Below, piece after piece: positions 3,819 through 25,253 of a DNA stretch of 32,000 bases. The DNA lies in the NCBI GenBank assembly GCA_023136205.1, contig JAGLRQ010000040.1, positions 57 through 32,056 on the forward strand, given 5' to 3'. The DNA is from Candidatus Auribacterota bacterium (lineage in GTDB: Bacteria > Auribacterota > UBA6266). The notes beneath the pieces were generated by a model, which was given only the letters and a program-made list of their open reading frames with translations, did no database searches and was not told the origin of the DNA. The translations under genes and the position numbers were made by a program. Positions within the stretch are counted from its first letter, which is position 1. Each line of letters begins with the position of its first letter.

Positions 3819-3857
3819 ATTTAGATGAATAAAAAACAAAGTAAAAAGGAGGGAAGA

Positions 3858-5621: not shown

Positions 5622-5802
5622 AAACCGGAAGGATTAACAGAATATATGCCAAGCTGGTGAAAGATAAGTTAAACCTGTAATATTTTTTTTTATTTGAGTT
5701 AACATTTGTATAAACACTTAAGGTTCACACGAGCAGTAGAAAACCGCGTTGGAAAGCATCAGGTAAGTGTGGAATTTTCGAAAGAAATAATATAGAATGA
5801 AC

Positions 5803-5831
5803 TTGACATATAGAAAAATGTATAGTAAAAA
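5803..5831 (+). promoter_or_regulatory. Sigma70-type promoter for the glnN-gltBD operon
   Basis: TTGACA (5803-5808), 17 nt, then TAAAAA (5826-5831). The -10 is weak. Confidence 0.45.
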
Positions 5832-5851
5832 GGACAACGATTTTGGAAATA

Positions 5852-5896
5852 GGTACAAAGTTGTACCGCCGGAAAAAAGATAACAAAGGCGTTCTT
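5852..5896 (+). promoter_or_regulatory. ANTAR-type dual hexaloop RNA element (P1 + P2) in the glnN leader
   Basis: P1 is GGUAC-AAAGUU-GUACC (5852-5867). P2 is GAUAAC-AAAGGC-GUUCUU (5879-5896, one U/C mismatch). Both hexaloops have A at position 1 and G at position 4, as in described ANTAR targets. The P2 3' half lies in the terminator 5' arm. Confidence 0.55.
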
Positions 5897-5927
5897 AAAC
5901 CTGCAGGGTTTTTGAGTGCCTTTTTTT
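5888..5927 (+). terminator. Intrinsic terminator in the glnN leader
   Basis: GGCGUUCUUAAACCU / GGGUUUUUGAGUGCC gives 13 of 15 pairs with loop GCA, followed by U7 (5921-5927). It lies 45 nt before the glnN start codon. Confidence 0.65.
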
Positions 5928-5971
5928 GTTTGTGTTTATGGAGCAAATAGTAAAATAATAGGAGATAAAAT

Positions 5972-8080: not shown

Positions 8081-8101
8081 TAAACGCAATAAAGCAGGCA
8101 A

Positions 8102-8136
8102 TTACGGCACCACGTTTAATGGTGCCGTAACTTTTG
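8102..8136 (+). terminator. Hairpin terminator between glnN and gltB
   Basis: 11-bp perfect stem UUACGGCACCA / UGGUGCCGUAA, 7-nt loop, tail CUUUUG. Only about 28 nt separate it from the gltB start, so read-through is probably needed for gltB expression. Confidence 0.6.
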
Positions 8137-8163
8137 TGTAAACGCTAAATAAAAATATTGATC

Positions 8164-11100: not shown

Positions 11101-12693
11101 AGCACGAGATATACTACTCCGGGTGTGACACTTATTTCACCACCGCCTCATCATGACATATATTCGATTGAAGATCTTGCACAGCTGATTTTTGATCTGA
11201 AAAATGTAAATCCGAGAGCCCGGATAAGTGTAAAACTTGTGTCTGAAATCGGAGTTGGAACTGTCGCGGCAGGCGTCGCGAAAGGACGCGCGGATATGAT
11301 TCTGATCTCCGGCAGTGATGGCGGGACAGGAGCATCTCCGCGAAGCTCAATAATGCACGCGGGCCTTCCGTGGGAACTTGGCCTGTCAGAAACTCATCAA
11401 ACCCTCGTTTTAAATAATCTTCGCAGCAGAGTAGTTTTGCAGACTGACGGACAAATAAGAACCGGAAGGGATGTTGCTATAGCGGCTCTTCTTGGCGCGG
11501 AGGAGTATGGAATTTGTTCTGCCTGTCTGGTTATTCTTGGTTGTGTGATGTTAAGACATTGCCATTTAAATAACTGTTCTATGGGTGTAGCCACTCAAGA
11601 TCCTATTTTACGGAGCAGGTTTCGCGGAAGGCCGGAATACATTGTTACCTATATGAACTTTGTTGCCCAGGAACTTCGCGAGATCATGGCTTCTCTTGGA
11701 ATAAGAAACCTGGACGACATGATTGGCCGGACGGATTTATTGGAAGTAAACAAAGATATAATTCCATGGAAAGCTTCACAGATTGATTTTTCAAATATTC
11801 TGTATAAACCTGATATTAAAGAGGGAGTAGGTACGTTTTGTAAAAAAAGGCAAAATCATGGTATTGATAATGTTCTTGATCGCAGGCTTATCAAACTGGC
11901 GCGCAGAAGTTTGTTGAACAGGGAACAGATACGCGAAGAGATTAGCATTTGCAATACTGATAGATCTACCGGAGCAATGTTGAGTGGGGAAATTTGCAGG
12001 ATTTACGGCGAAGAAGGTTTCCCGAACGACACTATTTATTTTAAATTCACTGGTGTGGCAGGCCAGAGTTTCGGAGCCTGGCTTACAAAGGGTGTTACTT
12101 TTGAACTGGAAGGTATAACCAATGATTACGTAGGCAAAGGTATTTCAGGAGGGAAGATAATTATTTATCCGGATAGACGTTCTAAATACAAGGCTCACGA
12201 AAATATTATAGTAGGCAATACAAGTTTTTATGGAGCTATAAGCGGTGAGGCATACATAAGAGGTATCGCCGGTGAAAGATTTTGCGTTAGGAATTCGGGA
12301 GTTAATGCTGTTGTTGAGGGTGTTGGGGATCACGGCTGTGAATACATGACGGGTGGGAGAATTGTGATATTGGGAAAAACCGGTAGAAATTTTGCCGCGG
12401 GCATGTCGGGGGGTATCGCGTATGTATTTGATGAAGACAACATGATTGAAAGTAGATGCAATATAAATATGGTTAACATTGATGTGGTTGATGATGAGGA
12501 TGAGGCAGCGATACATGAACTTGTTCATAATCATTATAAATATACTCAAAGCGAAAAGGCAAAAATGATTTTGGGGGATTTTAAGAAGAGTTTGAAAAGT
12601 TTCGTTAAGGTAATTCCCGTTGAGTATAAGCGGATTTTGGAAACTAAAAAAACAGATGAAAAATTGGGGTTAACAGAGATATCCGATGGGTGA
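8164..12693 (+). CDS. gltB: Glutamate synthase large subunit
   Basis: About 1509 aa. Has the N-terminal Ntn amidotransferase Cys (EHDSCGVGFV), FMN/Fe-S central and GXGXG C-terminal domains (GAMSFGSIS, SNTGEGGE, LISPPPHHDIYSIEDL, GGTGASP). The start could alternatively be TTG at 8158. Confidence 0.95.
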   Translation: MEENQFFKKQGLYDPRFEHDSCGVGFVCNVKGEKTHEIIVQGLKVLKRLSHRGATGSDPETGDGAGILIQIPHDFFAGECGEIKIDLPPPGKYGTGLIFLPVDKKERIFCKKLFSKAVEELGQKVLGWREVPVSESVIGKTAKEIRPVIEQIFISRNENIKDTLDFERKLYLIRKHVENVIRSSKLKQKAFFYITNISCRTFIYKGLLMPSQLERFFPDLGNEKLASSLCIVHSRYSTNTFPSWDLSQPFRFLAHNGEINTLRGNVNWMRAKEGLLNSSYFGEDVEKIKPVIVPGGSDSAALDNVLELLVLSGRSLPHAMMMLIPSAWEQDAFMDEKLRAFYQYHACLMEPWDGPAAIAFTDGTCLGAFLDRNGLRPARYIITKNDLLVMASEVGVLDIDPGDIKVSGRLEPGKMLYVDTEKKKVVDNKELKEEISLGKPYDSWLKKNMARIEDLPEPIYNKSGNKDVIPLLKAFGYTREDLKFIIKPMAENGGEAIGSMGNDTPHAVLSKRPQLVYNYFKQLFAQVTNPPIDPIREELVMSLECYMGTRRNLLDETPLHCGKLKLKHPILSNADLEKIRKINQKGFCSKTISILFKAKDESSFQEALERICLEAAAAIEGNNTFIILSDRGVNKDYAAIPALIAVGAVHQYLVKQGSRSQIALIVESGEPRDVHHFSLLFAFGAGCVNPYMAFDSVEYMIREGMLDTEIEMANKNYINALKKGILKILSKMGISTLRSYRGAQIFEALGLNKEIIEKCFTGTVSRIEGAGMEVIAKETLIRHRDAYCVRGENSNLLPAGGVYQWKKDGEFHLWNPESIAALQDAAKHDDYDKYEEFSCLINDQSNNPATLRSLWKFKKVNPVAIDEVESIHNIFGRFVTGAMSFGSISKDAHESIALAMNRIGGKSNTGEGGEDPSRFVSLRSGHSKRSAIKQVASGRFGVSTNYLVNADEVQIKIAQGAKPGEGGQLPGHKVSVTIASTRYTTPGVTLISPPPHHDIYSIEDLAQLIFDLKNVNPRARISVKLVSEIGVGTVAAGVAKGRADMILISGSDGGTGASPRSSIMHAGLPWELGLSETHQTLVLNNLRSRVVLQTDGQIRTGRDVAIAALLGAEEYGICSACLVILGCVMLRHCHLNNCSMGVATQDPILRSRFRGRPEYIVTYMNFVAQELREIMASLGIRNLDDMIGRTDLLEVNKDIIPWKASQIDFSNILYKPDIKEGVGTFCKKRQNHGIDNVLDRRLIKLARRSLLNREQIREEISICNTDRSTGAMLSGEICRIYGEEGFPNDTIYFKFTGVAGQSFGAWLTKGVTFELEGITNDYVGKGISGGKIIIYPDRRSKYKAHENIIVGNTSFYGAISGEAYIRGIAGERFCVRNSGVNAVVEGVGDHGCEYMTGGRIVILGKTGRNFAAGMSGGIAYVFDEDNMIESRCNINMVNIDVVDDEDEAAIHELVHNHYKYTQSEKAKMILGDFKKSLKSFVKVIPVEYKRILETKKTDEKLGLTEISDG

Positions 12694-14107
12694 TCCAAAA
12701 GGGTTTTTAAAAGTTAAACGGCAGGCTTCAGATTTCAGGCCTGTCTGTGAACGTGTTAAAGATTATAAGGAGGTATTTCAAATACCCTCCGATAAGAAAT
12801 CGATGGAACAGGCATCCCGCTGTATGGATTGCGGGACCCCTTTTTGTAATTGGGGTTGTCCTGTCGGAAACTATATCCCGGAATGGAATGATTTTATGTT
12901 CCACGGACATTGGGAAAAGGCATATAGACTTCTTGACGCGATGAACAATTTGCCGGAAATAACCGGGAGAGTTTGCCCGGCCGCGTGTGAATACGCGTGT
13001 GTGCTGGGAGCAAATGATGATCCGGTAACTGTAAGGGAAAACGAGCTTGCGATTATTGAGTATGCTTTTAAAAAAGGATTTGTAAAACATAGAGTATGCG
13101 GATCCAGAACCGGTAAAAGAATTGCTGTTGTGGGTTCAGGCCCGGCAGGAATCTCGAGCGCGGATCAACTTAACAGATATGGCCATAGTGTTGTCGTTTT
13201 TGAAAAAGCTGAAAAGATAGGGGGTATACTAAGATATGGAATTCCTGATTTTAAGCTTGAAAAGTGGATTTTAGACAGACGTATAAACATCTTAAAAAAA
13301 GAAGGAATTAAGTTTATTACCGGTGTTAATGTTGGAATTGATTATGGAGTTCCTAAGCTGCTTAAAGAATTTGATGCTGTTTGTCTTGCCGGTGGTTCCC
13401 GGGTTCCCAGAGATTTAAAGATAGAAGGAAGGGGCCTAAAAGGCATTCATTTCGCGATGGATTATTTGACACAGCAGAATAAAAGGGTTTCAGGGGAAAA
13501 CTTTTCGGAAGATTTAATAGATGCAAAGGGTAGAAAGGTAGTTGTTATTGGCGGCGGGGATACCGGTTCGGATTGTGTTGGAACGGCACATAGGCAGGGA
13601 GCAAATTGTGTTGTTCAGATAGAGATTATGCCAAAGCCGGAGGGGTGCCGTACTGATGACTACCCCTGGCCGTCTTATCCAATGATATTAAAAACGTCCA
13701 CCAGCCATGAAGAAGGGGGAGAAAGGTATTGGTCTCTATTAACTAAAAATTTTACAGGTAAAAATGGCAGGGTTAGCAAGATTATATGCAAGAAGGTTGA
13801 ATTCTCTAAGGCCGATAAAAAAGGCTGTTCATTAATGAAAGAAATACCGGACAGCGAGTTTGAAATTGATGCCGGCCTTGTAATAATTGCCGCGGGTTTC
13901 TTACATGCTTCTCATGGCGGGCTGGTTGATAATCTGGGTGTTGAAAAAGATGAGCGTGGAAATGTAAAAACCAATGAAAATTTTATGACTTCCATAAAAA
14001 ATGTTTTTTCTGCCGGCGATATGAGAAGGGGCCAGTCTCTTGTTGTATGGGCTATTAATGAAGGCAGAAGATGCGCGGAAGCAATTGATAAATTTCTTTT
14101 AGGGTAA
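12686..14107 (+). CDS. gltD: Glutamate synthase small subunit (NAD(P)H-dependent)
   Basis: ATG overlaps the gltB stop (ATGGGTGA). Has the Fe-S Cys clusters (CMDCGTPFC, CPVGN, CPAACEYAC) and dinucleotide folds (VAVVGSGPAG, VVVIGGGDTGSDC). Confidence 0.9.
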   Translation: MGDPKGFLKVKRQASDFRPVCERVKDYKEVFQIPSDKKSMEQASRCMDCGTPFCNWGCPVGNYIPEWNDFMFHGHWEKAYRLLDAMNNLPEITGRVCPAACEYACVLGANDDPVTVRENELAIIEYAFKKGFVKHRVCGSRTGKRIAVVGSGPAGISSADQLNRYGHSVVVFEKAEKIGGILRYGIPDFKLEKWILDRRINILKKEGIKFITGVNVGIDYGVPKLLKEFDAVCLAGGSRVPRDLKIEGRGLKGIHFAMDYLTQQNKRVSGENFSEDLIDAKGRKVVVIGGGDTGSDCVGTAHRQGANCVVQIEIMPKPEGCRTDDYPWPSYPMILKTSTSHEEGGERYWSLLTKNFTGKNGRVSKIICKKVEFSKADKKGCSLMKEIPDSEFEIDAGLVIIAAGFLHASHGGLVDNLGVEKDERGNVKTNENFMTSIKNVFSAGDMRRGQSLVVWAINEGRRCAEAIDKFLLG

Positions 14108-14118
14108 GGTGTGTTTAT

Positions 14119-16734
14119 ATGGATGAGAACTTTAGTACAGGACTTCCGGATTTGGATAGTATTTTACGGGGGATATGTCCGGGTGATAATGTCGTTTTCC
14201 AGGTAGATACTGTAGGGGATTATATTCCATTTGTCCATCCTTTCTGCGAAAAGGCTCATATGCAGGGCCGGGATCTAATTTATTTTCGCTTTGCCGATCA
14301 CGAGTATCTTATTCCTAAGGGTGTTTCTGCTCATGTTTATGAAATTCATCCGGAGGCCGGCTTTGAAAAATTTATTGCCGAAATTTTTGATGTTATTGAA
14401 AAATTCGGTTATGGCGCCTGTTATGTTTTTGATTCTCTTTCCGAGCTTGCGGTTGACTGGTACAGTGACCGTATGCTGGGAAACTTCTTTATGCTTACGT
14501 GTCCTTATCTATATACCTTTGATACGGTCGCGTATTTCGGGCTTTTAAGGAATCATCATTCTTCATATGCCGTTGATGCCATACACAGCACCGCGCAGGT
14601 GGTTCTTGATATTTATCGTAGAAAAAGCGAATTTTATGTCTATCCTCTTAAAGTATATGAGCGGCATTCTAAAACAATGTATATGCCTCATAAGTGGGAT
14701 GGTGACAGGTTTATTCCGGAAGTAAGGAGCGCGGCAATCGCGGAGATACTCGGGTCAGTTTCCCACCCGTGGCTTGATTTTACGATAAACCGTTATGATA
14801 TCTGGGCCCGAAGCTTTACAGAAGCGCAGGAGATTGTTGACTCGGGCGCTAACGAAAAGCCGAAAGACTCGAGACAAAAAACCCTGTTTAGCCGCCTTAT
14901 CCGAATGGTGGTTTCAAGAGACCCGCGGGTTCTGTCTCTTATAGAGAAATATTTTAACCTGAAAGATGTGGTTAATATAGGAAAACGGATGATAGGTACA
15001 GGCCTGATCGGCGGCAAATCTCTCGGGATGCTGCTTGCGCGGTCTATAGTGAAGAATCAAGATAAAGATTTACATGACAAACTTGAATATCACGATTCGT
15101 TTTTTATCGGGTCGGATGTATTTTATACGTATATTATTGAAAACGGCTGCTGGTGGGCAAGGCGCGGAATAAAAAGAGAGGGTACATCCTTTAATGGGTT
15201 TATGGAAGTCAGACAACGTATGCTTTCCGGTAAGTTCCCGGACTACATTAAAAATCAATTTATTGAGATGCTCGATTATTTTGGGCAGTCTCCCATTATA
15301 GTCAGGTCTTCAAGCCTTCTTGAGGATGCGTATGGAAACGCTTTTTCCGGAAAGTACGAGAGTGTTTTTTGCGCGAATCAGGGAACACCCGAAGAACGTC
15401 TGGAGAAATTTATAGAAGCTGTTAGAATAGTCTATACGAGCACAATGAGCAAAGAGGCGATAGCTTACCGGGCGCGCTGGAACCTGCTGGATCGAGATGA
15501 ACAAATGGCTATTTTAGTACAGAGGGTTTCTGGCTCTATATATGGGGATCAGTATTTTCCTCAGGTTGCGGGTGTTGGGTTTTCATTTAATCCCTATGTA
15601 TGGAGCAATGAAATTAAACCGGAAGAAGGAATGATCCGTCTGGTTTTTGGTTTGGGGACCCGGGCTGTTGACAGAAGCGGCGATGATTATACACGGCTGG
15701 TGGCTTTAAATTCGCCGGACAGACGCCCGGAAGGAAGCCTTGCGGATGTTAGAAAATACTCTCAGCATCGTGTGGATGTTCTTGACTTACATGATAACCG
15801 TTATGTAACGAAAGATTTTGAGGAGGTAGTGCGGGGAGCTCCTGAATTTGACCCTAAGATGTTTGCTTCCCGCGATAAGGAAGTTGAAAGGAAAGCCAGA
15901 GAATACGGAACAAAAAATGTGTTCTCATGGGTTTTGACTTTTGACGAGCTTTTATCAGGCACAGGGTTTGTCGGGGATATGGGGAAAATGCTTAAGATTC
16001 TTCAAAAAGCTTATAATCATCCCGTGGATGTGGAATTCACGGCGAATTTTCTGGACGGTTGGCAGGATTATAATATAAACCTGCTTCAATGCAGGCCGTT
16101 TCAGATAAAAGGAAATCTGCGGAAAGTCAAGGCCCCGGTATCTATAAAGGACGAGCAGGTATTGCTGAAAACAAGAGGGCCGATTATCGGCAGCAGTATT
16201 TCTACGACAGTTGACAGAATTATTTATGTTGTTCCTGAAGTTTATAGTAAAATGAAGATAACAGACAGATATTCCGTTGCTCGTTTAATCGGACGAATTA
16301 CCCATCTCAAAGACAAGGGGAAAATACCCAAAATTATGCTTATCGGCCCGGGGAGGTGGGGAACCACCACGCCTTCTTTAGGTGTGCCCGTTTCATTTGC
16401 GGAGATAGATACCGTTTCTGTTATATGTGAAGTCGCGGCTATGGATGAAAACCTGATTCCGGATATATCTCTGGGAACGCATTTTTTTAATGACCTTGTT
16501 GAGGTAGATATGTTATATCTTGCTGTTTTTCCGGATAAAAAAGACAGCGCGATAAACAGATGTTTTTTTAATAACACTAAAAATAAGCTGGCTTCTTTGA
16601 TACCTGTTGAAAAATTATTTTCTCAGGCTGTAAAAGTAATAGATTCCGACAGTATTGAATCAGGCCGGCCGATGTGCCTGAACGCGGATGTCCTTGAACA
16701 AAAAGGAATCTGCTATCTAGATGTTAAAAAATAA
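14119..16734 (+). CDS. PEP/pyruvate-binding (PPDK_N ATP-grasp) domain protein with a degenerate KaiC/RecA-like N-terminal domain
   Basis: Starts 11 nt after gltD. The N-terminus GLPDLDSILRGICPGDNVVF...YVFDSLSEL resembles KaiC/RadA-like ATPases but lacks a GKT/S Walker A. The centre (IIVRSSSLLEDAYGNAFSGKYESVF, AILVQR, GVGFSFNP, VFGLGTRAVD) matches the nucleotide-binding domain of pyruvate-phosphate/water dikinases. No phospho-His swivel motif was seen. Confidence 0.7.
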   Translation: MDENFSTGLPDLDSILRGICPGDNVVFQVDTVGDYIPFVHPFCEKAHMQGRDLIYFRFADHEYLIPKGVSAHVYEIHPEAGFEKFIAEIFDVIEKFGYGACYVFDSLSELAVDWYSDRMLGNFFMLTCPYLYTFDTVAYFGLLRNHHSSYAVDAIHSTAQVVLDIYRRKSEFYVYPLKVYERHSKTMYMPHKWDGDRFIPEVRSAAIAEILGSVSHPWLDFTINRYDIWARSFTEAQEIVDSGANEKPKDSRQKTLFSRLIRMVVSRDPRVLSLIEKYFNLKDVVNIGKRMIGTGLIGGKSLGMLLARSIVKNQDKDLHDKLEYHDSFFIGSDVFYTYIIENGCWWARRGIKREGTSFNGFMEVRQRMLSGKFPDYIKNQFIEMLDYFGQSPIIVRSSSLLEDAYGNAFSGKYESVFCANQGTPEERLEKFIEAVRIVYTSTMSKEAIAYRARWNLLDRDEQMAILVQRVSGSIYGDQYFPQVAGVGFSFNPYVWSNEIKPEEGMIRLVFGLGTRAVDRSGDDYTRLVALNSPDRRPEGSLADVRKYSQHRVDVLDLHDNRYVTKDFEEVVRGAPEFDPKMFASRDKEVERKAREYGTKNVFSWVLTFDELLSGTGFVGDMGKMLKILQKAYNHPVDVEFTANFLDGWQDYNINLLQCRPFQIKGNLRKVKAPVSIKDEQVLLKTRGPIIGSSISTTVDRIIYVVPEVYSKMKITDRYSVARLIGRITHLKDKGKIPKIMLIGPGRWGTTTPSLGVPVSFAEIDTVSVICEVAAMDENLIPDISLGTHFFNDLVEVDMLYLAVFPDKKDSAINRCFFNNTKNKLASLIPVEKLFSQAVKVIDSDSIESGRPMCLNADVLEQKGICYLDVKK

Positions 16735-16752
16735 TATTTTGGGGATTTTGAT

Positions 16753-17460
16753 ATGAAAGAAAATGAGAAACAGCTTGAAGCCCTGTTTAAAATAAGCAAG
16801 GCGATTGCTTCAGATAATTATCTTGAAGACATTCTTAAACTTATAGTCGCGGTTACCGCCCAGGTGATGAACTCAAATATATGTACTTTAATGCTTATTG
16901 ACGAGCGAAAGAAAGAGCTTACAATACGGGCAACCCAGAGCGTAAGTGATGAATATAATAAAAAACCCCCAATTAAAATAGGCGAAGGGATTTCAGGCAA
17001 GGTCGCGAAAGAAAACAAGCCAATTTCAGTAAAAGATGTCGGTTTGGAAAAAGAATACAAATATCATGATATGGCTAAAAATGAGGGTTTAAAGTCTCTG
17101 CTTTGTGTGCCTCTTACGGTTAAGGGAAAGGTTATAGGCGTTATAAATTGTTATACTCCGGTCCCTCATGAATTTTCTTACGGCGAAATCAATATCCTCA
17201 AGACTATAGCCCATCAGGCCGCTGTCGCGATTGAAAACACCGAACTTATGGTAAAAACTAGGGTTATACAGGAAGAGCTTGAATCAAGAAAAAGAATCGA
17301 AAGAGCAAAGGGCATGTTGATGGAAGAAGAAAAATTGACAGAGCAGGAAGCCTATAACAAGATACAAAAGTTTGCCATGGATAACCGCAAAACCATGAAG
17401 GAAATAGCGGAAGCGATGATTCTGGCATATGATATGAGGCAGGGAAAAAAGAAAAAATAA
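16753..17460 (+). CDS. GAF-ANTAR RNA-binding transcription antiterminator
   Basis: Starts 18 nt after the upstream gene. GAF domain at about residues 10-165 (GEGISGKVA, LCVPL..GKVIGVINCY, AHQAAVAIEN). C-terminal ANTAR helices: LESRKRIERAKGMLMEEEKLTEQEAYNKIQKFAMDNRKTMKEIAEAMI. Confidence 0.85.
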   Translation: MKENEKQLEALFKISKAIASDNYLEDILKLIVAVTAQVMNSNICTLMLIDERKKELTIRATQSVSDEYNKKPPIKIGEGISGKVAKENKPISVKDVGLEKEYKYHDMAKNEGLKSLLCVPLTVKGKVIGVINCYTPVPHEFSYGEINILKTIAHQAAVAIENTELMVKTRVIQEELESRKRIERAKGMLMEEEKLTEQEAYNKIQKFAMDNRKTMKEIAEAMILAYDMRQGKKKK

Positions 17461-17567: not shown

Positions 17568-17595
17568 TAAGAAAAGGGAGTTGACCCCCTTTTCC
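17568..17595 (+). repeat. Hairpin-forming direct repeat, copy A (TAAGAAAAGGGAGTTGACCCCCTTTTCC)
   Basis: Identical to 19632-19658 apart from one extra C. GAAAAGGG pairs with CCCTTTTC as an 8-bp stem. Confidence 0.7.
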
Positions 17596-17623: not shown

Positions 17624-17865
17624 TCTGTATAGCTCCGTATTGATTCATTGATAGTGTAGTTGTTCAACAAACAGTTGTGAAAAAGCCAAATAAAAGATAA
17701 GATAAATTTTATACTAATAGTTGGTTTGCACAAAATACAAAACTTTGCTAACGTAAGACAGGAAGGTCTTTAGATGTAGGCTTATTCCAGAGCTTTATTA
17801 TGTATTTATTTTATTACTATCTTTAATGTACGTTATTTGGGGCGGCTCATTAAAAGGAGGTCTAT

Positions 17866-18144
17866 ATGGAAAAAAAACGGAAGTTCGATCTGAACGAAAT
17901 TAAAGCTCTCTTGCAGGAAAACGGATATACTATTGCTAGTGGCCTTAACCTAAGCTATAACACGGCGACTGAAAGTTGTGGTTCTTATTGCACCGGAGGC
18001 TGTAGAGGAGGCTGCTATACATGTAGTACTGGAACTTCTAAGAAAACAACGCAAGTAGTTCAACCTGCTATTCAAATTAGTAGAGAAAACATACTTGATA
18101 ATATCTTAACAATAACAAATGCACCAGCAGTTCGAAAGAAGTAG
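17866..18144 (+). CDS. Candidate RiPP precursor peptide with a central Cys ladder
   Basis: Strong SD AAGGAGG 6 nt before the ATG. 92 aa with five Cys, all in ESCGSYCTGGCRGGCYTCSTGTS (CX3CX3CX3CX2C), in a Gly/Ser/Thr-rich core. Charged helical N-terminal region. Lies 62 nt upstream of a radical SAM/SPASM gene. Confidence 0.6.
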   Translation: MEKKRKFDLNEIKALLQENGYTIASGLNLSYNTATESCGSYCTGGCRGGCYTCSTGTSKKTTQVVQPAIQISRENILDNILTITNAPAVRKK

Positions 18145-18206
18145 AGTTGCTTCTTACTGGTTAAAAGAGATCTGCCGCCCCGAAATTAAATATCAGGAGA
18201 ATTATA

Positions 18207-19634
18207 ATGAGATATCAACTGCACCACGATATCGGCATGAGATGTGATGTTGATAGAAATATCATTTATGTAAAAAATCCTGTTGAATCTGAATTGAGTG
18301 ATTTTCTGCAGACAATTAATTCTGAATTGGCTGTCTTCCTCGGACTGATGGATGGTTCTATGGAGATAGACGATGTCGTCCGGAACTGGAGCGAACTATT
18401 TTTCGGTACTAAACCTGACCGTGAGATTGGGAAGGTGCTTCAAGCTATGTTGAAGAGTAAACTCGGCCCGGATCTTCAGGTTCACCAAATATTGAACAAG
18501 GTGGATTCAAAGACATTAGGAAGAAGAGACCTCCCCGAAATAAGCACTCTTATTGTTCCCAAAGAAATCGAAAATATTGACGACCCGAGGCTCAGAATAC
18601 CTCTCCAGATGCTCTTTATGCCAACGTTGGATTGTACCCAGAAGTGTTCCTACTGCTATAGCACGGAATCATATTCGGATAATATAAAGGCCCTTGAATT
18701 CAAGAGAATACAGGAAATAATGGAAGAGGCGAAAAGGCTTGGTATGCACACAATAGATCTTTCCGGAGGAGAACCCGTTAGCTATAGACATTTCTTTCCT
18801 CTTCTGGAGAAGCTGTTTGAACTGGGGTTGGAGGTTAATTTGCCTACCAAATATCCACTCTCGAGAGAGGATGTAAAAAGGCTTAAAGCTATTGGCTTGA
18901 AAACGATACAAATAAGCATAGATGCCCTAACCCCAAAGGTTATAGATAAAGTTGTAGGCCTAAAAGGCTATGGACTAAAGATACTTAAGACACTCGATTA
19001 CTTAGAAGAAGCGGCGATAGGCGTAAGAACGAACACGGTCATAACATCATATACACTCGAAGAAGTAGAGCCCCTTATGCGCTTTTTAGCAACAAAAAAG
19101 AATATATACCGTGTAACTCAGTCACCCTATTCTATTTCCAGGTTTAAACACAAAAGCAAATTTCCAATCAGTAATGAAGAGTATAAAGTTATACTCGAGG
19201 CATCAGAAAAGATATTTGAATCGAGGCCCGATATAAGTTTTAATCCAGGAGATGTATTCGAACCCTACGAAAAAGTTTCCGTTATCGAACGGGAGAAGAG
19301 CTGGGACGAGAGGTCTTTTTGTAGTGGCGGCAGGCAAAATTTTGCTCTCCTGCCCGATGGCAAAGTTACCATGTGTGAAGAGCTGTACTATCAGCGTCAC
19401 TATATTATGGGTGACCTTACGGAGCAGTCGATCATGGAGATGTGGAATTCTCCAGAGGCAAAAAGCATATCCTATCCGCCGAAAGAACTATTTCCCGATG
19501 GGCCATGCAGAGATTGTAAAGACCTTGCTGCATGTCACTATTCTCCCGGAAGGTGCGTTAGAGAGGCTATTAAGCACTTCGGAGAAGATAAACATTATTA
19601 TCCAGATCCTAGGTGTCCTAAGGCTCCTGTTTAA
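18207..19634 (+). CDS. Radical SAM/SPASM peptide-modifying enzyme with an N-terminal RRE (PqqD-like) domain
   Basis: SD AGGAG upstream. CX3CX2C cluster CTQKCSYC plus SGGEP. The C-terminal SPASM-like cysteines are CSGG...DGKVTMC (GX4C) and CRDCKDLAACHYSPGRC, with a final C in RCPKAP. The first ~100 aa (IIYVKNP...INSELAVFLGLMDGSMEIDDVVRNW) look like a PqqD-type RiPP recognition element. Confidence 0.9.
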   Translation: MRYQLHHDIGMRCDVDRNIIYVKNPVESELSDFLQTINSELAVFLGLMDGSMEIDDVVRNWSELFFGTKPDREIGKVLQAMLKSKLGPDLQVHQILNKVDSKTLGRRDLPEISTLIVPKEIENIDDPRLRIPLQMLFMPTLDCTQKCSYCYSTESYSDNIKALEFKRIQEIMEEAKRLGMHTIDLSGGEPVSYRHFFPLLEKLFELGLEVNLPTKYPLSREDVKRLKAIGLKTIQISIDALTPKVIDKVVGLKGYGLKILKTLDYLEEAAIGVRTNTVITSYTLEEVEPLMRFLATKKNIYRVTQSPYSISRFKHKSKFPISNEEYKVILEASEKIFESRPDISFNPGDVFEPYEKVSVIEREKSWDERSFCSGGRQNFALLPDGKVTMCEELYYQRHYIMGDLTEQSIMEMWNSPEAKSISYPPKELFPDGPCRDCKDLAACHYSPGRCVREAIKHFGEDKHYYPDPRCPKAPV

Positions 19635-19658
19635 GAAAAGGGAGTTGACCCCTTTTCC
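19632..19658 (+). repeat. Hairpin-forming direct repeat, copy B (TAAGAAAAGGGAGTTGACCCCTTTTCC)
   Basis: Begins with the stop codon of the radical SAM gene. Matches copy A at 17568-17595. May also act as a terminator hairpin. Confidence 0.7.
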
Positions 19659-19680: not shown

Positions 19681-19792
19681 ATTAGAGAACCGGCAAAATA
19701 CACCCCCCCAATTTATACTCCCCGGAACAACAAACCCGGAAATAGGAACGGCTTGAAAGGTTATATGGGAAACACAAGGTAGTTGTATGTTT

Positions 19793-19845
19793 TGTTCAAA
19801 TATATTGCTTGTTCATTAATAATGAACATTAGAATAAATTGAACA
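19793..19845. promoter_or_regulatory. Nested-palindrome operator unit 1 (TGTTCA-N11-TGTTCA-N7-TGAACA-N11-TGAACA)
   Basis: Half-sites start at 19793, 19810, 19823 and 19840. The centre TGTTCATTAATAATGAACA is a perfect 19-nt palindrome. Confidence 0.5.
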
Positions 19846-19877
19846 ATTCTGGGATATGGTGAAATAATAACTATCAT

Positions 19878-19938
19878 TTGACTTTTGTTCAAAAATAAGA
19901 TATGTTCACAATAGATGAACATATCAATTATTTGAACA
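19878..19938. promoter_or_regulatory. Promoter (TTGACT-17-TATGTT) overlapped by nested-palindrome operator unit 2
   Basis: -35 TTGACT at 19878-19883 and -10 TATGTT at 19901-19906. Half-sites start at 19886, 19903, 19916 and 19933, with the same 11/7/11 spacing as unit 1. The downstream gene starts at 19953. Confidence 0.5.
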
Positions 19939-19952: not shown

Positions 19953-20999
19953 ATGATTGACAAATATACAGAAAATGAAGTTTTTCAAGCTGCCTTGGCT
20001 GCCTTTAGAAAAAATCTAGATAGGCCAGTTGACTTTATCGTTGACAATGCTGCAGAGCAATATTTGGACCAAAATGTAAGAGTGGATAGAACACTGCAGA
20101 TAAACCTCGATGGCAAAGAAATTCGCTTTTGTGTTGAGATAAAAACAAACATCAATACAGCAACAATTGGTCAATTGTTGAATCTAAAAAATCAGCTTCC
20201 TTATCCACTTATGCTTGTTACAAATTATACTAGAGAACATATTGCAAATCAATTAAGGCAGAATGGAATAGAATTCATTGATACAGCTGGAAATGCTTAT
20301 ATTAATCGGCCTCCCGTTTATATTTTTGTAATAGGAAATAAACCTCCTGAAGCTTTTATACAGGTTCCGGTTAAACAAGCTTTTAGGCCCACAGGCCTTA
20401 GAGTGGTTTTCGCTTTCCTATGCGATCCAAATTTAGTAAATAAAACATATCGTGAGATTGCTGATACTGCAGGTGTTGCTCTTGGAAATATTGGATGGAT
20501 AATGCGTGATTTAAGAAATTTTGGTTTTCTCTTAGAGATGGGAAAACATAAGTTTAAATTGGTCCAAAAAGAACAACTTTTAAATCGATGGGTTGTTGGA
20601 TATCAAGAAAAATTAAGGCCAAAACTGTTAATAGGCCGTTTTGAGGGTGTCTTAGGTTGGTGGAAACAAAAAAATCTTAATTATAAGCATGCTCAATGGG
20701 GCGGGGAAGTTGCTGCTGCTAGATTAACGAAATATTTAAAACCACAGAATATTATTATCTATGTAAAACAAAATTATCTCAAAGATTTAGTAATAGCAAA
20801 TAGATTAAAAAAAGATATCCATGGTGAAACAGAAATTTTCAAATGTTTTTGGAAACAAATTGGGCAAAATGAATTTCAAGATATTGTACATCCAATTCTT
20901 GTTTACGCGGATCTTATGGCAACAGGTGACCGGAGAAACATTGAAACGGCAAGGATGATTTATGAACAACATATTTTCCGATATATCAAAGAAGATTGA
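19953..20999 (+). CDS. AbiEi-like wHTH regulator/antitoxin candidate, possibly with an N-terminal nuclease-like fold
   Basis: 348 aa. Central wHTH-like segment NKTYREIADTAGVALGNIGWIMRDLRNFGFL. C-terminal VYADLMATGDRRNIETARMIYEQ resembles AbiEi-family C-termini. The N-terminal D..x9..EIK (LDGKEIRFCVEIK) is compatible with PD-(D/E)xK. Assigned from recalled motifs only, without a search. Confidence 0.45.
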   Translation: MIDKYTENEVFQAALAAFRKNLDRPVDFIVDNAAEQYLDQNVRVDRTLQINLDGKEIRFCVEIKTNINTATIGQLLNLKNQLPYPLMLVTNYTREHIANQLRQNGIEFIDTAGNAYINRPPVYIFVIGNKPPEAFIQVPVKQAFRPTGLRVVFAFLCDPNLVNKTYREIADTAGVALGNIGWIMRDLRNFGFLLEMGKHKFKLVQKEQLLNRWVVGYQEKLRPKLLIGRFEGVLGWWKQKNLNYKHAQWGGEVAAARLTKYLKPQNIIIYVKQNYLKDLVIANRLKKDIHGETEIFKCFWKQIGQNEFQDIVHPILVYADLMATGDRRNIETARMIYEQHIFRYIKED

Positions 21000-21813
21000 G
21001 CCATCTTTTGCTGATGCCCTTTCTGAAGTAAAAAAGATTGCGGATGATTTAAGCATTCCTTTTTTCCTTATTGGAGCAAAAGCAAGGGATTGTATACTTG
21101 AGTACCATTATGATATTAGATCCCCTCGAGTTACTGAAGACATAGATATAGCTGTGCTGGTACCAGATTGGGAGAAATACAAAACCTTAACAGATGCCTT
21201 GCTTGCCACCAGTAAATTTTCTAAAGAAAAGCAAAAACAAAGATATGCTTACAATGATACCCTTATTGACATAGTTCCCTTTGGCCCTATTTCCGGCAAG
21301 AATAAAGAAGTAAAATGGCCTCCGGAATGTGAAGTCATTATGAGTACTTTTGGCTTTGAGGAAATCTACAAACATGCTATTACCCTTAGACTTCGTGATA
21401 ACCCGATACTTGATGTAAAAATGCCCACGATTCCAGGGCTGGCAATAATGAAATTAATATCATGGAGTGAAAGAAATTCCCCCGAACGGCAAAAAGATGC
21501 AAAAGATTTATTATTCATTATGAAAAACTATGAAGATGCTGGAATTGAATCTCGTTTATATGAAAAAGAGAGTTCGTTACTCGAGGAAGAAGGGTTTGAT
21601 AACCAGCTGGCAGGAATTAGGCTTCTTGGGCGTGATATGGCAAAAATATCTAACGCTGATACTTTAGAAAAAATTAAAGAAATTTTATCTAATGAAACTG
21701 GCGATCAAACACAATACGAATTAATATCCAATATGCTTGGCATATCGGGCAGTTTTGAAGAAACATTAATGCAATTAGAAAAATTGGAGCAGGGCGTTTC
21801 AGAGGTTTTATAA
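20962..21813 (+). CDS. Pol-beta-superfamily nucleotidyltransferase, AbiEii-like toxin candidate
   Basis: Overlaps the upstream gene by 38 nt. The motif IGAKARD...SPRVTEDIDIAV fits the G[SA]-x(n)-DxD NTase signature and the R-x-[ST]-x-DID pattern of AbiEii/AbiGii. Confidence 0.5.
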   Translation: MNNIFSDISKKIEPSFADALSEVKKIADDLSIPFFLIGAKARDCILEYHYDIRSPRVTEDIDIAVLVPDWEKYKTLTDALLATSKFSKEKQKQRYAYNDTLIDIVPFGPISGKNKEVKWPPECEVIMSTFGFEEIYKHAITLRLRDNPILDVKMPTIPGLAIMKLISWSERNSPERQKDAKDLLFIMKNYEDAGIESRLYEKESSLLEEEGFDNQLAGIRLLGRDMAKISNADTLEKIKEILSNETGDQTQYELISNMLGISGSFEETLMQLEKLEQGVSEVL

Positions 21814-22094: not shown

Positions 22095-22184
22095 CGCAAA
22101 AGAAAATCATGCGGTCATGTATGGCAGGGGAGGCCAAGTAAGAAAAGATAGAAACCGGCAGAAAAAGGCGCTGTCCCCTTTACC
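22095..22184 (+). repeat. 90-bp direct repeat, copy 1 (contains a RAYT/IS200-like transposase remnant)
   Basis: Matches 22476-22565 with a single mismatch (GGCC vs GACC). One frame reads RKRKSCGHVWQGRPSKKR*, resembling the GH[LV]WQGR[FY] motif of COG1943-type transposases. Confidence 0.8.
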
Positions 22185-22299
22185 CTTTCAAGAAAATACT
22201 GAAAGAGCAGGGTGAGATTTTCTTTCGTGCTATCACATCAAAAAAGGAGAAACAATTTTTAATCGGCGGAGGGTGGAAGTGGTTGTAGGGAAAAAGGGT

Positions 22300-22475: not shown

Positions 22476-22565
22476 CGCAAAAGAAAATCATGCGGTCATG
22501 TATGGCAGGGGAGACCAAGTAAGAAAAGATAGAAACCGGCAGAAAAAGGCGCTGTCCCCTTTACC
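22476..22565 (+). repeat. 90-bp direct repeat, copy 2
   Basis: See copy 1. Starts 381 bp downstream of it. Confidence 0.8.
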
Positions 22566-22588
22566 TTTACCTTTACCTTTACCTTTAC
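22559..22588 (+). repeat. Tandem hexamer CTTTAC x5
   Basis: Read directly. Copy 1 of the 90-bp repeat has only one such unit at the same position. Confidence 0.7.
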
Positions 22589-22651: not shown

Positions 22652-24232
22652 ATGTCAAATAAGAATAAAAAGCAAAAACGTTTTTCATCAATAAACAAGC
22701 ATAAACGTGATGGGCGGATGCTTCGTTCTATGCCTGCCGATATGAAAGTTGACCTAATTGATTGGGAGCGAGATTTGATGCCGGAGCATATTTGGATAGA
22801 TTTGCTCGCTGAGGAATATAAAGATAAGCCATGGCACAAAATTTATGAACATTTTTTAGATGAATTGGATGCTGTTGGAAAAGGTATCCATTTGTTTGGA
22901 TTGATTTCAGATTTTGGTCTAATCCCTGAAGATGCCCGCAAAAAATTCGCATTATCAAAACAGGAGTTGATTTACGAGGCATTTTATAAACCCATCGGTG
23001 GCATTTTAAGCTTATATCCAGATAGCCCTGCAAGTTGGATGATTCTTGATGAGCACAAACAGGCTGATAATATAAACTTTGAGACTGAACTCGCAAGGTT
23101 GGCTAATTCCCTCAAAAGACTTATTAAGGCAAAAGATTTATATGCCGGACATATACGGATGATGCCATTTACAAGAGCAATAAAACATGGATTGGTTAAG
23201 ATACCCCTTGACGAAAAGGAGATCGATATGCTTACACGATACCCTACCGGATGCAGTGAGGAGGAGCGGTATTCTATACAACAGCATGCAAGGGTAATAA
23301 TGAATAGCCAGTATATGATAAACGACATATATCAGAAGAAGGTGTGGCCGAAATATTTTTGGAGACATAATTATAACTTAGTGCCTTGCCATCCCGTAAA
23401 AAAGTCATTGGATAGTGGTGATGATATTGATGTGGGGAAAATGAAATCTTTGCAAGAGCGAATTTGGACAAACTGTATAAGAATGATGAAATATCTTGAT
23501 AAAATTGCTCAGCAGTATAAATACGATTTATTCGATCCGTTTAAGGATGAAATATTACTTGGACTTTTTTCAAGAGTTGTTCGCTTGTATATATCATTTG
23601 CCGCGAATCCGTTTTTATGGAATCGAGATCTCTCTGGGCTCATGTTGCGGTGCATCGGTGAAACAACTATATTGTTCTTTTATTTTGCGAATAAGGCCAC
23701 TGATGAAGAATTTAGAAATTTTAAGAATTACTCTCAAGGGAAAGATAAATTGTTGATGCTTCATTTACAAGATACGTTGTTATACGGCAAGTCTTTAGAT
23801 GGTAAGAATATTGATCAGATCGCCCAAGATATTGGTGGAGGTTTGATAGCAGAAATGATGCCAATTGATTTAAAAGGATGGACTACAAAAAACATTCGTG
23901 ATTTAGCATTGGAAACTGGATTAGAGCGAATTTATCGATGGGTTATAGATCCATGTAGCTCTGAATTGCACGGATCATGGTCTAGTCTGCAGAAGTCTAA
24001 TCTTGTTATTTGTGCCCAGATATTGCATCGTTTTCATAAGGTTCCGAAATTTTTCGAACCTCCTATAAGATTATTAACCCTATATGTTGCCAAAGAGATT
24101 TACTTACAGGCAAAGGAAAATGGCGTAAATAAACTTGGATTTCCAGAGCCTAATGAGACCTTGGATGAAATAGAGGAAATAAAAGCAGCCTATGACAAAG
24201 TGGTTAAAGATTATCAAGAGACAAATGTGTGA
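22652..24232 (+). CDS. Hypothetical protein, 526 aa, no recognisable family
   Basis: Long uninterrupted ORF with a basic N-terminus (MSNKNKKQKRFSSINKHKRDGR). Predicted mostly helical, and no catalytic motif was recognised with any certainty. Confidence 0.6.
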   Translation: MSNKNKKQKRFSSINKHKRDGRMLRSMPADMKVDLIDWERDLMPEHIWIDLLAEEYKDKPWHKIYEHFLDELDAVGKGIHLFGLISDFGLIPEDARKKFALSKQELIYEAFYKPIGGILSLYPDSPASWMILDEHKQADNINFETELARLANSLKRLIKAKDLYAGHIRMMPFTRAIKHGLVKIPLDEKEIDMLTRYPTGCSEEERYSIQQHARVIMNSQYMINDIYQKKVWPKYFWRHNYNLVPCHPVKKSLDSGDDIDVGKMKSLQERIWTNCIRMMKYLDKIAQQYKYDLFDPFKDEILLGLFSRVVRLYISFAANPFLWNRDLSGLMLRCIGETTILFFYFANKATDEEFRNFKNYSQGKDKLLMLHLQDTLLYGKSLDGKNIDQIAQDIGGGLIAEMMPIDLKGWTTKNIRDLALETGLERIYRWVIDPCSSELHGSWSSLQKSNLVICAQILHRFHKVPKFFEPPIRLLTLYVAKEIYLQAKENGVNKLGFPEPNETLDEIEEIKAAYDKVVKDYQETNV

Positions 24233-24371: not shown

Positions 24372-25253
24372 ATGAATTTTGATTTTAATCCAAACACAAA
24401 AGAGTTTTCATTTAAAAATGCTTTGGTACTTGCTGAAGCATCAGAATTAGCCTACAAATCTCAGGCGGAATATGAAAAGATTCTTAAAGAAGAATGGGGA
24501 TTCTCGGATGTTTACCCCTTAGATAAAAAAGAAACCCAGGGTTTTATTGCTAAAAAAGCTGATATGATATTAATTGCTTTTCGAGGCACGGAAGAAACAA
24601 AGAACGAAGATATATTCACAGATATATTAGCGTGCCAGACAAAAACAGAACTGGGGAAAGTCCATTACGGATTTTTACGGGCGCTTAAAGCTGTCTGGAA
24701 GGATATTGTGACAGCAGTTAAAAATTATCAGGACAACAATCAACCTGTATGGATTGCAGGGCATAGCCTGGGAGGGGCTCTAGCCGCCCTTGCCGCAGCT
24801 AAGCTTGTATCGATAGATGCATGTCAAAACATTGGTGGGGTATATACATTTGGACAACCGATGATAGGAGATAAAGATTTTAAAGAAAAGTTTGAAAAGT
24901 TACTTCCAAGCGGAGCTTATAGAGTTACCAACTTTAAAGATCCAGTTACTTTAGTGCCATTGAATATTAATTTAAAGATATGGGGAAAGCGCATAATTTT
25001 CCAATACGATCATGCGGGTAAAATTATATTGTTTAATGAATCCGGGAAAATAGCTAAATCCGGAGATTTAATTACACGATGGGCGTTAATTTTAGTAGCT
25101 GTTTTAGGTTTTTTTGCTGCGTTTATTGTTAAAATGCTAAGAAAAGTGAAAACACCAGGCGAAATGTTAAAATGGGTTAAAAGTCTGGCAAAACCTCATG
25201 GATTAGATCAATATAAAGAAAATATTATTAAGAATTTGGGGTACGAGAAGTAA
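24372..25253 (+). CDS. Class 3 (fungal-type) lipase-family alpha/beta hydrolase with a C-terminal TM helix
   Basis: Nucleophile elbow GHSLGGALA, FRGTE, VYTFGQP, NFKDPVTLVP and a YDHAG His. Hydrophobic helix WALILVAVLGFFAAFIVKML near the C-terminus. Confidence 0.8.
   Translation: MNFDFNPNTKEFSFKNALVLAEASELAYKSQAEYEKILKEEWGFSDVYPLDKKETQGFIAKKADMILIAFRGTEETKNEDIFTDILACQTKTELGKVHYGFLRALKAVWKDIVTAVKNYQDNNQPVWIAGHSLGGALAALAAAKLVSIDACQNIGGVYTFGQPMIGDKDFKEKFEKLLPSGAYRVTNFKDPVTLVPLNINLKIWGKRIIFQYDHAGKIILFNESGKIAKSGDLITRWALILVAVLGFFAAFIVKMLRKVKTPGEMLKWVKSLAKPHGLDQYKENIIKNLGYEK

Follow-up and report, generated by a model that had tools for sequence, protein, structure and literature searches.

On contig JAGLRQ010000040.1 of a Candidatus Auribacterota bacterium, within a stretch of 32,000 nucleotides that was analysed as a whole (hereafter the window), two adjacent genes on the forward strand encode a 92-residue peptide with a ladder of cysteines and a predicted radical S-adenosylmethionine (SAM) enzyme of 475 residues (Table 1). 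These are very probably the precursor and the maturase of a ribosomally synthesised, post-translationally modified peptide (RiPP). The conserved pairing of the two genes, the domains of the enzyme and the selection acting on the peptide support the original prediction, made from the sequence alone, that they form a self-contained cassette in which the maturase combines a RiPP recognition element (RRE) with radical SAM and SPASM domains.

The peptide gene is preceded by a Shine-Dalgarno sequence, AAGGAGG, at 17854-17860, 5 nt before its ATG, in agreement with the original prediction of a 92-residue open reading frame (ORF) with a strong ribosome-binding site. Its product contains exactly five cysteines (C38, C42, C46, C50 and C53), and the ladder that they form within residues 38-53, C-GSY-C-TGG-C-RGG-C-YT-C, had been read correctly, as had the 37-residue leader-like region before it, the tail of about 35 residues after it and the start of the next gene 62 nt downstream. 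A small 8-bp hairpin overlaps the stop codon of the peptide gene. An attenuator hairpin between the two genes was considered and rejected, given a stability no greater than that of shuffled sequence (z = 0.25), and Rfam and tRNA scans found no RNA genes in the window.

Table 1. Features of the cassette and its borders (positions within the window)
Feature	Position	Strand	Basis or remarks
Upstream copy of 25-nt hairpin-forming direct repeat, TAAGAAAAGGGAGTTGACCCCCTTT	17568..17592	+	Followed by C/T-rich tracts; terminator-like; 108 nt past the GAF-ANTAR gene
Upstream leader/promoter-proximal region	17795..17865	+	Co-travels with the cassette (nucleotide homology to relatives)
Precursor peptide gene	17866..18144	+	92 aa; leader, core and tail
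Peptide leader, residues 1-37	17866-17976	+	Sequence
Cys/Gly core, residues 38-58	17977-18039	+	Sequence
Core C42-TGG-C46-RGG-C50-YT-C53-ST-G56	17989..18033	+	Family-invariant; built of C-x-x-G units
Conserved C-terminal tail, residues 59-92	18040-18141	+	Sequence
Intergenic spacer, 62 nt	18145..18206	+	AGGAG at 18195-18199 ahead of the enzyme ATG
RRE-radical SAM-SPASM enzyme, putative maturase, 475 aa	18207..19634	+	Pfam, homologues, predicted structure
N-terminal RRE-like winged-helix domain, about residues 1-105	18207..18521	+	Predicted fold
Enzyme segment with invariant columns	18633..18656	+	Homologue alignment
GGE motif, S186-P190	18762-18776	+	Sequence
SPASM domain, seven invariant Cys	19311..19631	+	Pfam and homologue alignment
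Downstream copy of 25-nt repeat, hairpin GAAAAGGG-AGTTGAC-CCCTTTTC, then CT-rich run	19632..19657	+	Terminator-like; begins at the enzyme stop codon

The enzyme is predicted to combine RRE, radical SAM and SPASM domains

The enzyme contains the radical SAM motif C143-x3-C147-x2-C150, an SGGEP sequence at residues 186-190, and SPASM cysteines arranged as C372-x12-G-x4-C390 ... C434-x2-C437-x5-C443-x6-C450 ... C470. The usual SPASM consensus has x3 at the last spacing, where this enzyme has x6, making the region near-canonical. Pfam matched Radical_SAM (PF04055) at residues 139-294 with 73 bits (cutoff 29.5) and SPASM (PF13186) at residues 372-438 with 47.7 bits (cutoff 21.5), so that sequence and Pfam both agree with the earlier description of a radical SAM enzyme with CX3CX2C and GGE motifs and a near-canonical SPASM region. 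C143, C147 and C150, as well as the SPASM cysteines C372, C390, C434, C437, C443, C450 and C470, are invariant among 46 homologues.

An AlphaFold2 model of the enzyme built on 46 homologues (pLDDT 92.2, pTM 0.90) had SuiB as its top Foldseek match in the PDB, aligned over the full length including the N-terminal domain (487 columns, TM 0.66), followed by SkfB, PqqE and CteB, the last with a TM of 0.45. When a profile of the enzyme family was compared to solved structures, the matches were PqqE (E = 5e-28), SuiB (4e-22), SkfB (1e-20) and CteB (4e-10); MoaA was also matched, and the SkfB match was no better than that of MoaA.

The predicted N-terminal domain consists of strands at residues 2-5, 9-14, 17-22 and 34-37 and helices at residues 39-47, 54-66 and 72-82. 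With residues 1-126 modelled alone (pLDDT 92.6), all of the top 12 PDB matches were RRE-containing structures; matches included TbiB1 with leader peptide (probability 0.91-0.97), ThcOx, the N-terminus of SuiB and lasso B1, with the PbtF RRE at rank 36. Because the top 12 matches are all RRE structures, with probabilities up to 0.97, we accept the RRE-radical SAM-SPASM architecture as supported by the predicted fold. The PqqD-like RRE of the original prediction therefore stands at the level of the fold, but not at that of Pfam for the window protein, and the Pfam PqqD model matches 3 of 27 N-termini in the family. The general features of an RRE-dependent radical SAM-SPASM maturase are all present, namely CX3CX2C and GGE in the radical SAM core, a seven-cysteine SPASM motif, an N-terminal RRE (at the fold level) and an adjacent precursor.

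Among 1.84 billion proteins, a profile of the N-terminal domain recovered 386 representatives (one per cluster at 50% identity), with nearly all matches at the N-terminus of proteins of about 470-510 residues. By these matches, the enzyme family is moderately large, has a single architecture and occurs in both bacteria and archaea.

Peptide and enzyme are paired across distant relatives

Protein clusters with 100% identity to the enzyme and the peptide of the window belong to a metagenome-assembled genome (MAG) labelled 'Candidatus Aureabacteria bacterium'. Enzymes with 78-85% identity to that of the window, found in MAGs labelled Nitrospirota and Zixibacteria as well as in other MAGs and unbinned contigs, have an upstream peptide of 92-95 residues with the same design, and those with 47-51% identity have upstream peptides of 86-102 residues with the same leader, core and tail. 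A profile search with the peptide recovered 20 such peptide clusters, all 'hypothetical' or unnamed. Enzymes with 30-38% identity, from Paenibacillus (four species), Geothrix, Breoghania, Afifella, Methanothrix, deltaproteobacteria, Ignavibacteriales, Aminicenantes and Omnitrophota, come with one or two Cys-ladder peptides encoded upstream, whose leader is related (L-x-E-L-K-x-L-L-x-x-x-G-L-S). The small ORF is thus kept beside orthologous enzymes over a range of about 47-100% enzyme identity, and a Cys-ladder peptide is also present with distant homologues, including those of Bacteroidota.

The strength of this association was estimated by scoring ORFs with a four-cysteine ladder by regular expression within 1 kb upstream of the enzyme gene, on the same strand, in 81 related loci. 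Such an ORF was present in 48 of them, compared to a frequency of 0.026 per kb elsewhere in those loci. For pairs with an estimable synonymous substitution rate (dS), the ratio of nonsynonymous to synonymous rates (dN/dS) was 0.11-0.19 for the peptide gene as a whole, with 0.04 for the core and 0.13-0.24 for the tail. Purifying selection acts on leader, core and tail of the peptide.

One further copy of the cassette, at about 50% identity (locus L094, 4459-4966 of contig_11717, ERZ25039603), has a peptide that is broken up among three frames, with the N-terminus of its enzyme in a separate ORF, and is either a pseudogene or the product of long-read frameshift errors.

The core is built of C-x-x-G repeats and is followed by a clade-specific tail

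In the clade to which the window peptide belongs, C42, G45, C46, G49, C50, C53 and G56 of the core are invariant. One precursor (P0138) has only four cysteines, the first of the ladder being absent, and the minimal motif is for this reason given as CX3CX3CX2C-xx-G, a block that aligns across the wider precursor family. In a count over 156 ladder cysteines from 29 precursors, Gly made up 52% and Cys 24% of the residues at +3, while Gly accounted for 7%, 12% and 4% at +1, +2 and +4, respectively. Since Gly is concentrated at +3, the repeating unit is taken to be C-x-x-G. Judged by sequence, the window peptide is a member of a wider family of C-x-x-G-repeat precursors and not an isolated oddity.

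The tail of about 35 residues is present in 21 of 21 precursors of the window clade and is missing from most of the wider family. Its motif, (H/Q)-P-T-(F/I)-Q-(F/I) ... E-G-(I/V)-L-E-E-L-V-T-I, takes the form Q-P-A-I-Q-I-S-R-E-N-I-L-D-N-I-L-T-I-T in the window, and its conserved blocks lie 14-30 residues beyond the ladder; variability within the peptide is highest in the 13 residues that directly follow the ladder. A few members of the wider family (L008, L016 and L020) have unrelated tails that begin with Pro and resemble amphipathic helices by eye. The tail appears to be a conserved, clade-specific addition that could serve as the acceptor arm of a hairpin, as a second recognition element or as part of the product. 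We also considered whether leader and tail are degenerate repeats of one another, based on a likeness seen by eye (ILREAGYRIS and VLEELVTIS), and rejected this idea after hhalign of 21 leaders against 21 tails gave a probability of 0.2 with one aligned column.

The two genes appear to travel as a mobile module

Nucleotide homology between the window and its four nearest relatives (L081, L082, L002 and L003) is confined to 17795/17811-19634, at 75-80% identity, with unrelated flanks. Because the similarity stops at these borders, the mobile unit is, as far as the alignments tell, about 1.83 kb long and consists of a short upstream region and the two genes. The presence of this module in MAGs assigned to different phyla points to horizontal transfer, with the caveat that the assignments depend on MAG binning.

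When all neighbours within 5 kb were clustered, no gene other than the peptide was shared within the close family. M16 peptidases, which occur close to L003 and L095, and DsbD/rhodanese genes, which occur close to L093, were considered as accessory genes and rejected, as they are not shared. The earlier observation that no protease, transporter or immunity gene accompanies the pair holds for the window and also for the close relatives.

The pair lies outside curated families

No NCBIfam or Pfam model claims either the enzyme or the peptide, in that none reaches its own cutoff. The best NCBIfam scores of the enzyme were for PqqE (81 bits, cutoff 381), MoaA (67 bits, cutoff 284) and MftC (64 bits, cutoff 265). 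Models for the GeoRSP, ScmE and ACGX maturases matched the enzymes at 59-92 bits, with a cutoff of 400 for the highest, and the StsB model scored 43 bits compared to a cutoff of 625. Among the best 25 of 74 NCBIfam matches of the enzyme, there was no SCIFF-maturase, GggB-named or anaerobic sulfatase-maturing enzyme (anSME) model. These results place the enzyme outside the known sactisynthase groups (AlbA/ThnB, TrnC/D, RumMC, StsB and GggB, among others), no model of which reached its cutoff, and outside PqqE and MftC, which scored below cutoff, and anSME, with the cognate operons absent nearby. Together with best folds of SuiB, SkfB, PqqE and CteB and the lack of pqq or mft genes nearby, they indicate that the enzyme does not cluster to any real extent with anSME or cofactor-maturing enzymes; the original prediction had named such clustering as an outcome that would count against it. 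Nor did any NCBIfam model score near its cutoff in eight relatives, among them cultured Paenibacillus and Breoghania as well as several Bacteroidota, and the idea that the Bacteroidota relatives belong to the curated GG-Bacteroidales radical SAM family was rejected on this account.

The best NCBIfam match of the window peptide was TIGR04117 (E = 5e-4, residues 27-61), with 20.0 bits compared to a cutoff of 50. Peptides of the relatives weakly matched TIGR04117, TIGR04118 and TIGR04149, with at most 18 bits compared to the TIGR04117 and TIGR04118 cutoffs of 50 and 35, so that neither the window peptide nor its relatives fall within TIGR04117 or TIGR04118. There was no SCIFF match of the window peptide in NCBIfam at E <= 0.1. 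The original prediction had noted that the cysteine spacing mirrors that of SCIFF peptides; this is best regarded as a numerical coincidence, and a relationship to SCIFF was rejected given the lack of a hidden Markov model match and the fact that CteB is a poorer match than PqqE, SuiB and SkfB.

The original prediction recognised no described precursor family with this sequence. The precursor is a member of the wider C-x-x-G-repeat family and bears a weak, below-cutoff resemblance to TIGR04117 and TIGR04118. In the literature on CXXX-repeat peptides, Cys-rich radical SAM RiPPs and follower peptides, with the RODEO dataset of PMC10288494 outside this coverage, we found no description of the enzyme/peptide family, which seems to be uncurated, apparently uncharacterised and fairly widespread. 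The cassette works like a sactipeptide or ranthipeptide cassette, lies outside every defined family and is not categorically new.

Distant relatives occur in an exported-RiPP context

In Bacteroidota, the loci of homologues encode precursors with GG leaders, an ABC exporter with a C39 peptidase and an outer-membrane protein of the TonB type (TonB-dependent-receptor-like). The GG-leader precursors carry C-x-x-G repeats, as for example in CKPGCTGGCISGC and CKRGCVPGCRPGCAPGC, and the N-terminal region of the enzymes at loci L024-L080 is more divergent, the locus search having matched only from residues ~100-130 onward. The Geothrix locus encodes a MacB-type transporter, whose permease was confirmed by Pfam for Geothrix only; ABC-transporter genes of an Ignavibacteriales locus clustered with those of Geothrix by BLAST alone. 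Exporters and GG leaders in these relatives represent a classical setting for exported RiPPs, and this genomic context supports a RiPP reading of the whole enzyme superfamily.

Two variations in gene content were also observed. At L013 (Geothrix alkalitolerans, 5878-11296) and at L045 and L056 (Aminicenantes, Clostridia), the precursor is followed by two tandem paralogous radical SAM-SPASM genes, and in Geothrix these are followed by a MacB/FtsX-type permease. A conserved protein of about 390 residues without a Pfam match adjoins the enzyme at L021, L045, L055, L056 and L069.

Genomic surroundings of the cassette

The cassette sits between a nitrogen-assimilation operon that ends in a GAF-ANTAR regulator and an AbiEi/AbiEii toxin-antitoxin pair, and there are no pqq, mft, sulfatase or molybdenum cofactor (Moco) genes near the enzyme in the window. 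A 25-nt direct repeat, TAAGAAAAGGGAGTTGACCCC(C)TTT, encloses the cassette exactly, its copies at 17568-17592 and 19632-19656 being 96% identical. The 17-nt core of this repeat occurs twice in the window, compared to 0.08 occurrences expected by chance, and the repeat was not found in the loci of relatives. These copies might have arisen by duplication of a terminator, or they might be left over from insertion of the cassette.

Upstream, the co-directional nitrogen-assimilation string (3825-17460) encodes an ammonium transporter, a type III glutamine synthetase, the large and small subunits of glutamate synthase, an 871-residue protein in which an unassigned N-terminus of about 290 residues is fused to PPDK_N (PEP-utilising, ATP-binding), and the GAF-ANTAR RNA-binding regulator. 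Downstream, the AbiEi antitoxin gene (19953-20999) overlaps that of AbiEii (20962-21813), and directly upstream of it, at 19790-19938, are two copies of an element of about 56 nt with TGTTCA...TGAACA inverted repeats, which look like candidate operator sites for AbiE autoregulation. The AbiE pair is followed by a gene for a 526-residue DUF5677 protein (22652-24232) and one for a class-3 lipase (24372-25253). Between the AbiE pair and the DUF5677 gene, two copies of a 93-nt direct repeat lie 381 nt apart, at 22095-22187 and 22476-22568, with 98% identity. A small ORF (…GQVRKDRNRQKKALSPLP…) overlaps each copy, and both finish with CCCCTTTACC-type tracts resembling those by the cassette hairpins; the repeat may be a genome-wide element. 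The GC content is about 0.33-0.38 downstream of the cassette compared to 0.40-0.45 upstream, and this lower GC content, together with the AbiE, DUF5677 and lipase genes, suggests that the downstream region is a variable or defence island.

Proposed mechanism and alternative explanations

Based on these data, the best explanation is a self-contained two-gene RiPP module, to which, together with the mechanism that follows, we assign a probability of roughly 0.6. The leader of the 92-residue precursor (hydrophobic-x-x-I/L-K/E-x-x-L-x-x-x-G-Y) would be bound by the N-terminal RRE of the enzyme, and this binding would place the C-x-x-G core (CX3CX3CX2C-xx-G) in the radical SAM active site. Radical SAM enzymes cleave SAM reductively to yield a 5'-deoxyadenosyl radical that abstracts a hydrogen atom; here, the [4Fe-4S] cluster of the CX3CX2C motif would carry out the cleavage and the radical would take the hydrogen atom from a core residue. 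In CteB, the SPASM cluster has an open iron to which a Cys of the substrate binds (PMC8326336). By analogy with the proposal for that enzyme, a core Cys thiolate, probably held by the auxiliary SPASM cluster, would trap the carbon radical, so that an intramolecular thioether forms and 2 Da are lost, a step that would be repeated along the ladder.

We lean slightly towards a Cys-derived thioether as the modification. The most specific guess, which is tentative, is a series of small rings in which S-C-alpha bonds join Cys(i) to Gly(i+3), as in the streptosactin/StsA type, and not a SCIFF-type link, because 52% of the ladder cysteines across the family have Gly at +3, the window clade shows no variation at G45, G49 and G56, and there is precedent for Cys-Gly links: streptosactin contains Cys31-Gly34 (i+3) and Cys25-Ser28 links (PMC8172795), and StsA contains three Cys-Gly sactionine links (PMC10288494). 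As neither a protease nor an exporter co-travels with the module, trimming and export, if any, would be carried out by unlinked functions, or else the product would act inside the cell.

Several observations weigh against this interpretation. A four-cysteine-ladder ORF is missing from 33 of the 81 related loci. The RRE fold matches of residues 1-126 have weak E-values (0.03-0.2) and TM values of 0.4-0.66, and Pfam PqqD has no match in the window enzyme. Thioether formation is argued purely by analogy, and the enzyme is not close to characterised thioether synthases, given its weaker match to CteB (4e-10, compared to 5e-28 for PqqE and 4e-22 for SuiB) and the StsB score of 43 compared to 625 bits. 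The conserved Gly residues could also provide flexibility or turns instead of serving as acceptors.

The peptide could instead be a nested-hairpin (type I) sactipeptide in which the tail forms the acceptor half and the cysteines at 38-53 are linked to the C-alpha of residues along ~63-80, as in thuricin Z/huazacin, thurincin H and thuricin CD. Huazacin/thuricin Z has CX3CX3CX3C donors and acceptors about 4 residues apart (Cys16-Asp26, Cys12-Thr30, Cys8-Tyr34 and Cys4-His38; PMC8172795), and the window peptide has the same donor spacing and then a long C-terminal segment, which in its clade is retained without exception and under purifying selection. However, most precursors of the wider family have the same core and a homologous enzyme although they stop 3-8 residues past the last Cys, too soon for a hairpin to form. 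Furthermore, the residues that directly follow the ladder are the most variable and the conserved tail blocks lie far from it, and the enzyme is not detectably nearer to hairpin sactisynthases than to other SPASM enzymes. We therefore consider a hairpin unlikely.

It is also quite unlikely that the same pair performs other radical SAM chemistry, such as epimerisation, C-C or C-O cross-linking, Cys oxidation or another Cys transformation, with the cysteines serving mainly as an anchor on the auxiliary cluster, as metal ligands or in disulfides. The nearest enzymes by structure and sequence, SuiB and PqqE, form Lys-Trp and Glu-Tyr C-C links, respectively, and are not thioether synthases, and in the radical SAM superfamily, sequence reveals function only where a characterised enzyme shares very high identity (PMC10288494). 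On the other hand, Cys and Gly are the sole residues conserved across the cores of the family, no conserved aromatic, Lys, Glu or Tyr partner fits the known C-C or C-O links, and the Cys-rich cores found so far beside RRE-radical SAM-SPASM enzymes are those of thioether peptides (PMC8326336).

A matured mini-protein or cofactor-like peptide that stays inside the cell, as a Cys cage for a metal or Fe-S cluster or as a signal like SCIFF, and that remains intact, its leader and tail forming structural arms, would account for a moving unit of two genes only, for the lack of protease, exporter and immunity genes in the window or conserved in close relatives, and for purifying selection on leader, core and tail alike. 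The alternating hydrophobic and polar stretches of leader and tail, YTIASGLNLSY, AIQIS and ILTIT, which look strand-like by eye, might also fit such a product. Against it, distant relatives carry C39-ABC or MacB-type exporters and GG leaders, indicating export in those branches, and RiPPs are commonly processed by unlinked housekeeping proteases and exporters, leaving it improbable. An enzyme of the anSME or cofactor-maturing type (pyrroloquinoline quinone, mycofactocin, heme d1 or Moco) beside an unrelated or non-coding ORF would agree with PqqE, MoaA and MftC as the top NCBIfam scores, but these are far below their cutoffs and the corresponding genes are absent nearby. An incidental ORF of this kind is effectively excluded, given that enzyme and small ORF stay together in different phyla and move as a single unit, that the ORF shows purifying selection, and that the N-terminal domain of the enzyme has an RRE fold.

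Comparison with known systems

The sactipeptide systems with Gly acceptors or short rings, streptosactin (GggA/GggB) and StsA/StsB, resemble the cassette in that an RRE-radical SAM-SPASM enzyme is encoded beside a small Cys-rich precursor, and their Cys-Gly S-C-alpha links, which are i+3 in streptosactin, have a counterpart in the C-x-x-G repeating core of the window family. In contrast, the window enzyme has no significant specific similarity to StsB, with the score given above, or to GggB, for which no named model was among the best 25 of 74 matches; its family has cores with four to eight ladder cysteines compared to two or three; and the window cassette has no linked protease or transporter and includes the conserved 35-residue tail. 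The chemistry assigned to the cassette by this comparison is an analogy.

SCIFF and other ranthipeptide systems (CteA-CteB, Tte1186a and freyrasin PapA-PapB) are likewise minimal cassettes of a peptide and a radical SAM-SPASM enzyme that are widespread in anaerobes, with Thr, Ser and Gly between the core cysteines and an enzyme with an N-terminal RRE and a seven-cysteine SPASM domain (PMC8326336). The window core occupies a central position in a peptide of about 90 residues, whereas the SCIFF core is C-terminal in about 45 residues, and the conserved unit is C-x-x-G, compared to Cys with Thr, Asp or Asn acceptors in SCIFF. Ranthipeptide links join a Cys sulfur to the C-beta or C-gamma of Asp, Asn, Thr or Glu; in the window family, the position before the fourth ladder Cys is often Thr, Ser or Asn, without being invariant. 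The peptide does not match the SCIFF model, the enzyme (with no SCIFF-maturase model among its best 25 of 74 NCBIfam matches) does not group with the SCIFF-maturase/QhpD-like clade, and CteB is a weaker match to the enzyme than PqqE, SuiB and SkfB.

The Cys-repeat radical SAM targets defined by Haft (TIGR04117 Syntroph_Cxxx, TIGR04118 AC3_0185 and TIGR04149 GG-Bacteroidales; and the related ACGX, GeoRSP and SCM cassettes) share small peptides with period-4 Cys repeats encoded beside a radical SAM/SPASM enzyme, and differ in that the window peptide reaches 20 compared to 50 bits and the enzymes at most 92 compared to 400 bits. To our knowledge, TIGRFAM families of the TIGR04117, TIGR04118 and TIGR04149 type have not been characterised experimentally. 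SuiB/SuiA (streptide) and PqqE/PqqA are SPASM enzymes that act on ribosomal peptides via an RRE, and SuiB is the best fold and PqqE the best sequence match of the window enzyme. Identity to these is 16-20%, and the window substrates lack Lys/Trp or Glu/Tyr pairs, with Cys and Gly conserved instead, and pqqBCD are absent.

Significance

Much new peptide chemistry comes from radical SAM maturases of RiPPs, and many uncharacterised families of such RiPPs exist. The family described here is one lead among them, and nothing about it runs against expectations for the class. What is new, as read from the sequences, is the family core CX3CX3CX2C-xx-G of C-x-x-G repeats together with the clade-specific conserved tail. 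The substrate signature is simple and sharply conserved, the cassette is minimal, and the family includes cultured strains of Paenibacillus, Geothrix, Breoghania and Afifella, among them Paenibacillus rhizophilus, P. zanthoxyli, Geothrix alkalitolerans and Breoghania corrubedonensis.

In a more speculative scenario, which we regard as unlikely, the (C-x-x-G)n core would give rise to an undescribed scaffold of contiguous i-to-i+3 Cys-Gly thioether rings or another Cys/Gly cross-link, and the product of the window clade, about 90 residues long and retaining leader and tail, would be an intracellular mini-protein that acts as a metal or redox cage or as a signal, encoded by a 1.8-kb module hopping between phyla of anaerobes. 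If true, these features taken together would represent a new RiPP class and a new precursor logic, with a mid-peptide core and a conserved follower. The conserved tail of the window clade makes it a test case for how radical SAM maturases handle a core that is flanked on both sides, and the apparent movement of a 1.8-kb unit between MAGs labelled with different phyla raises the question of what benefit the peptide provides without dedicated export or immunity genes.

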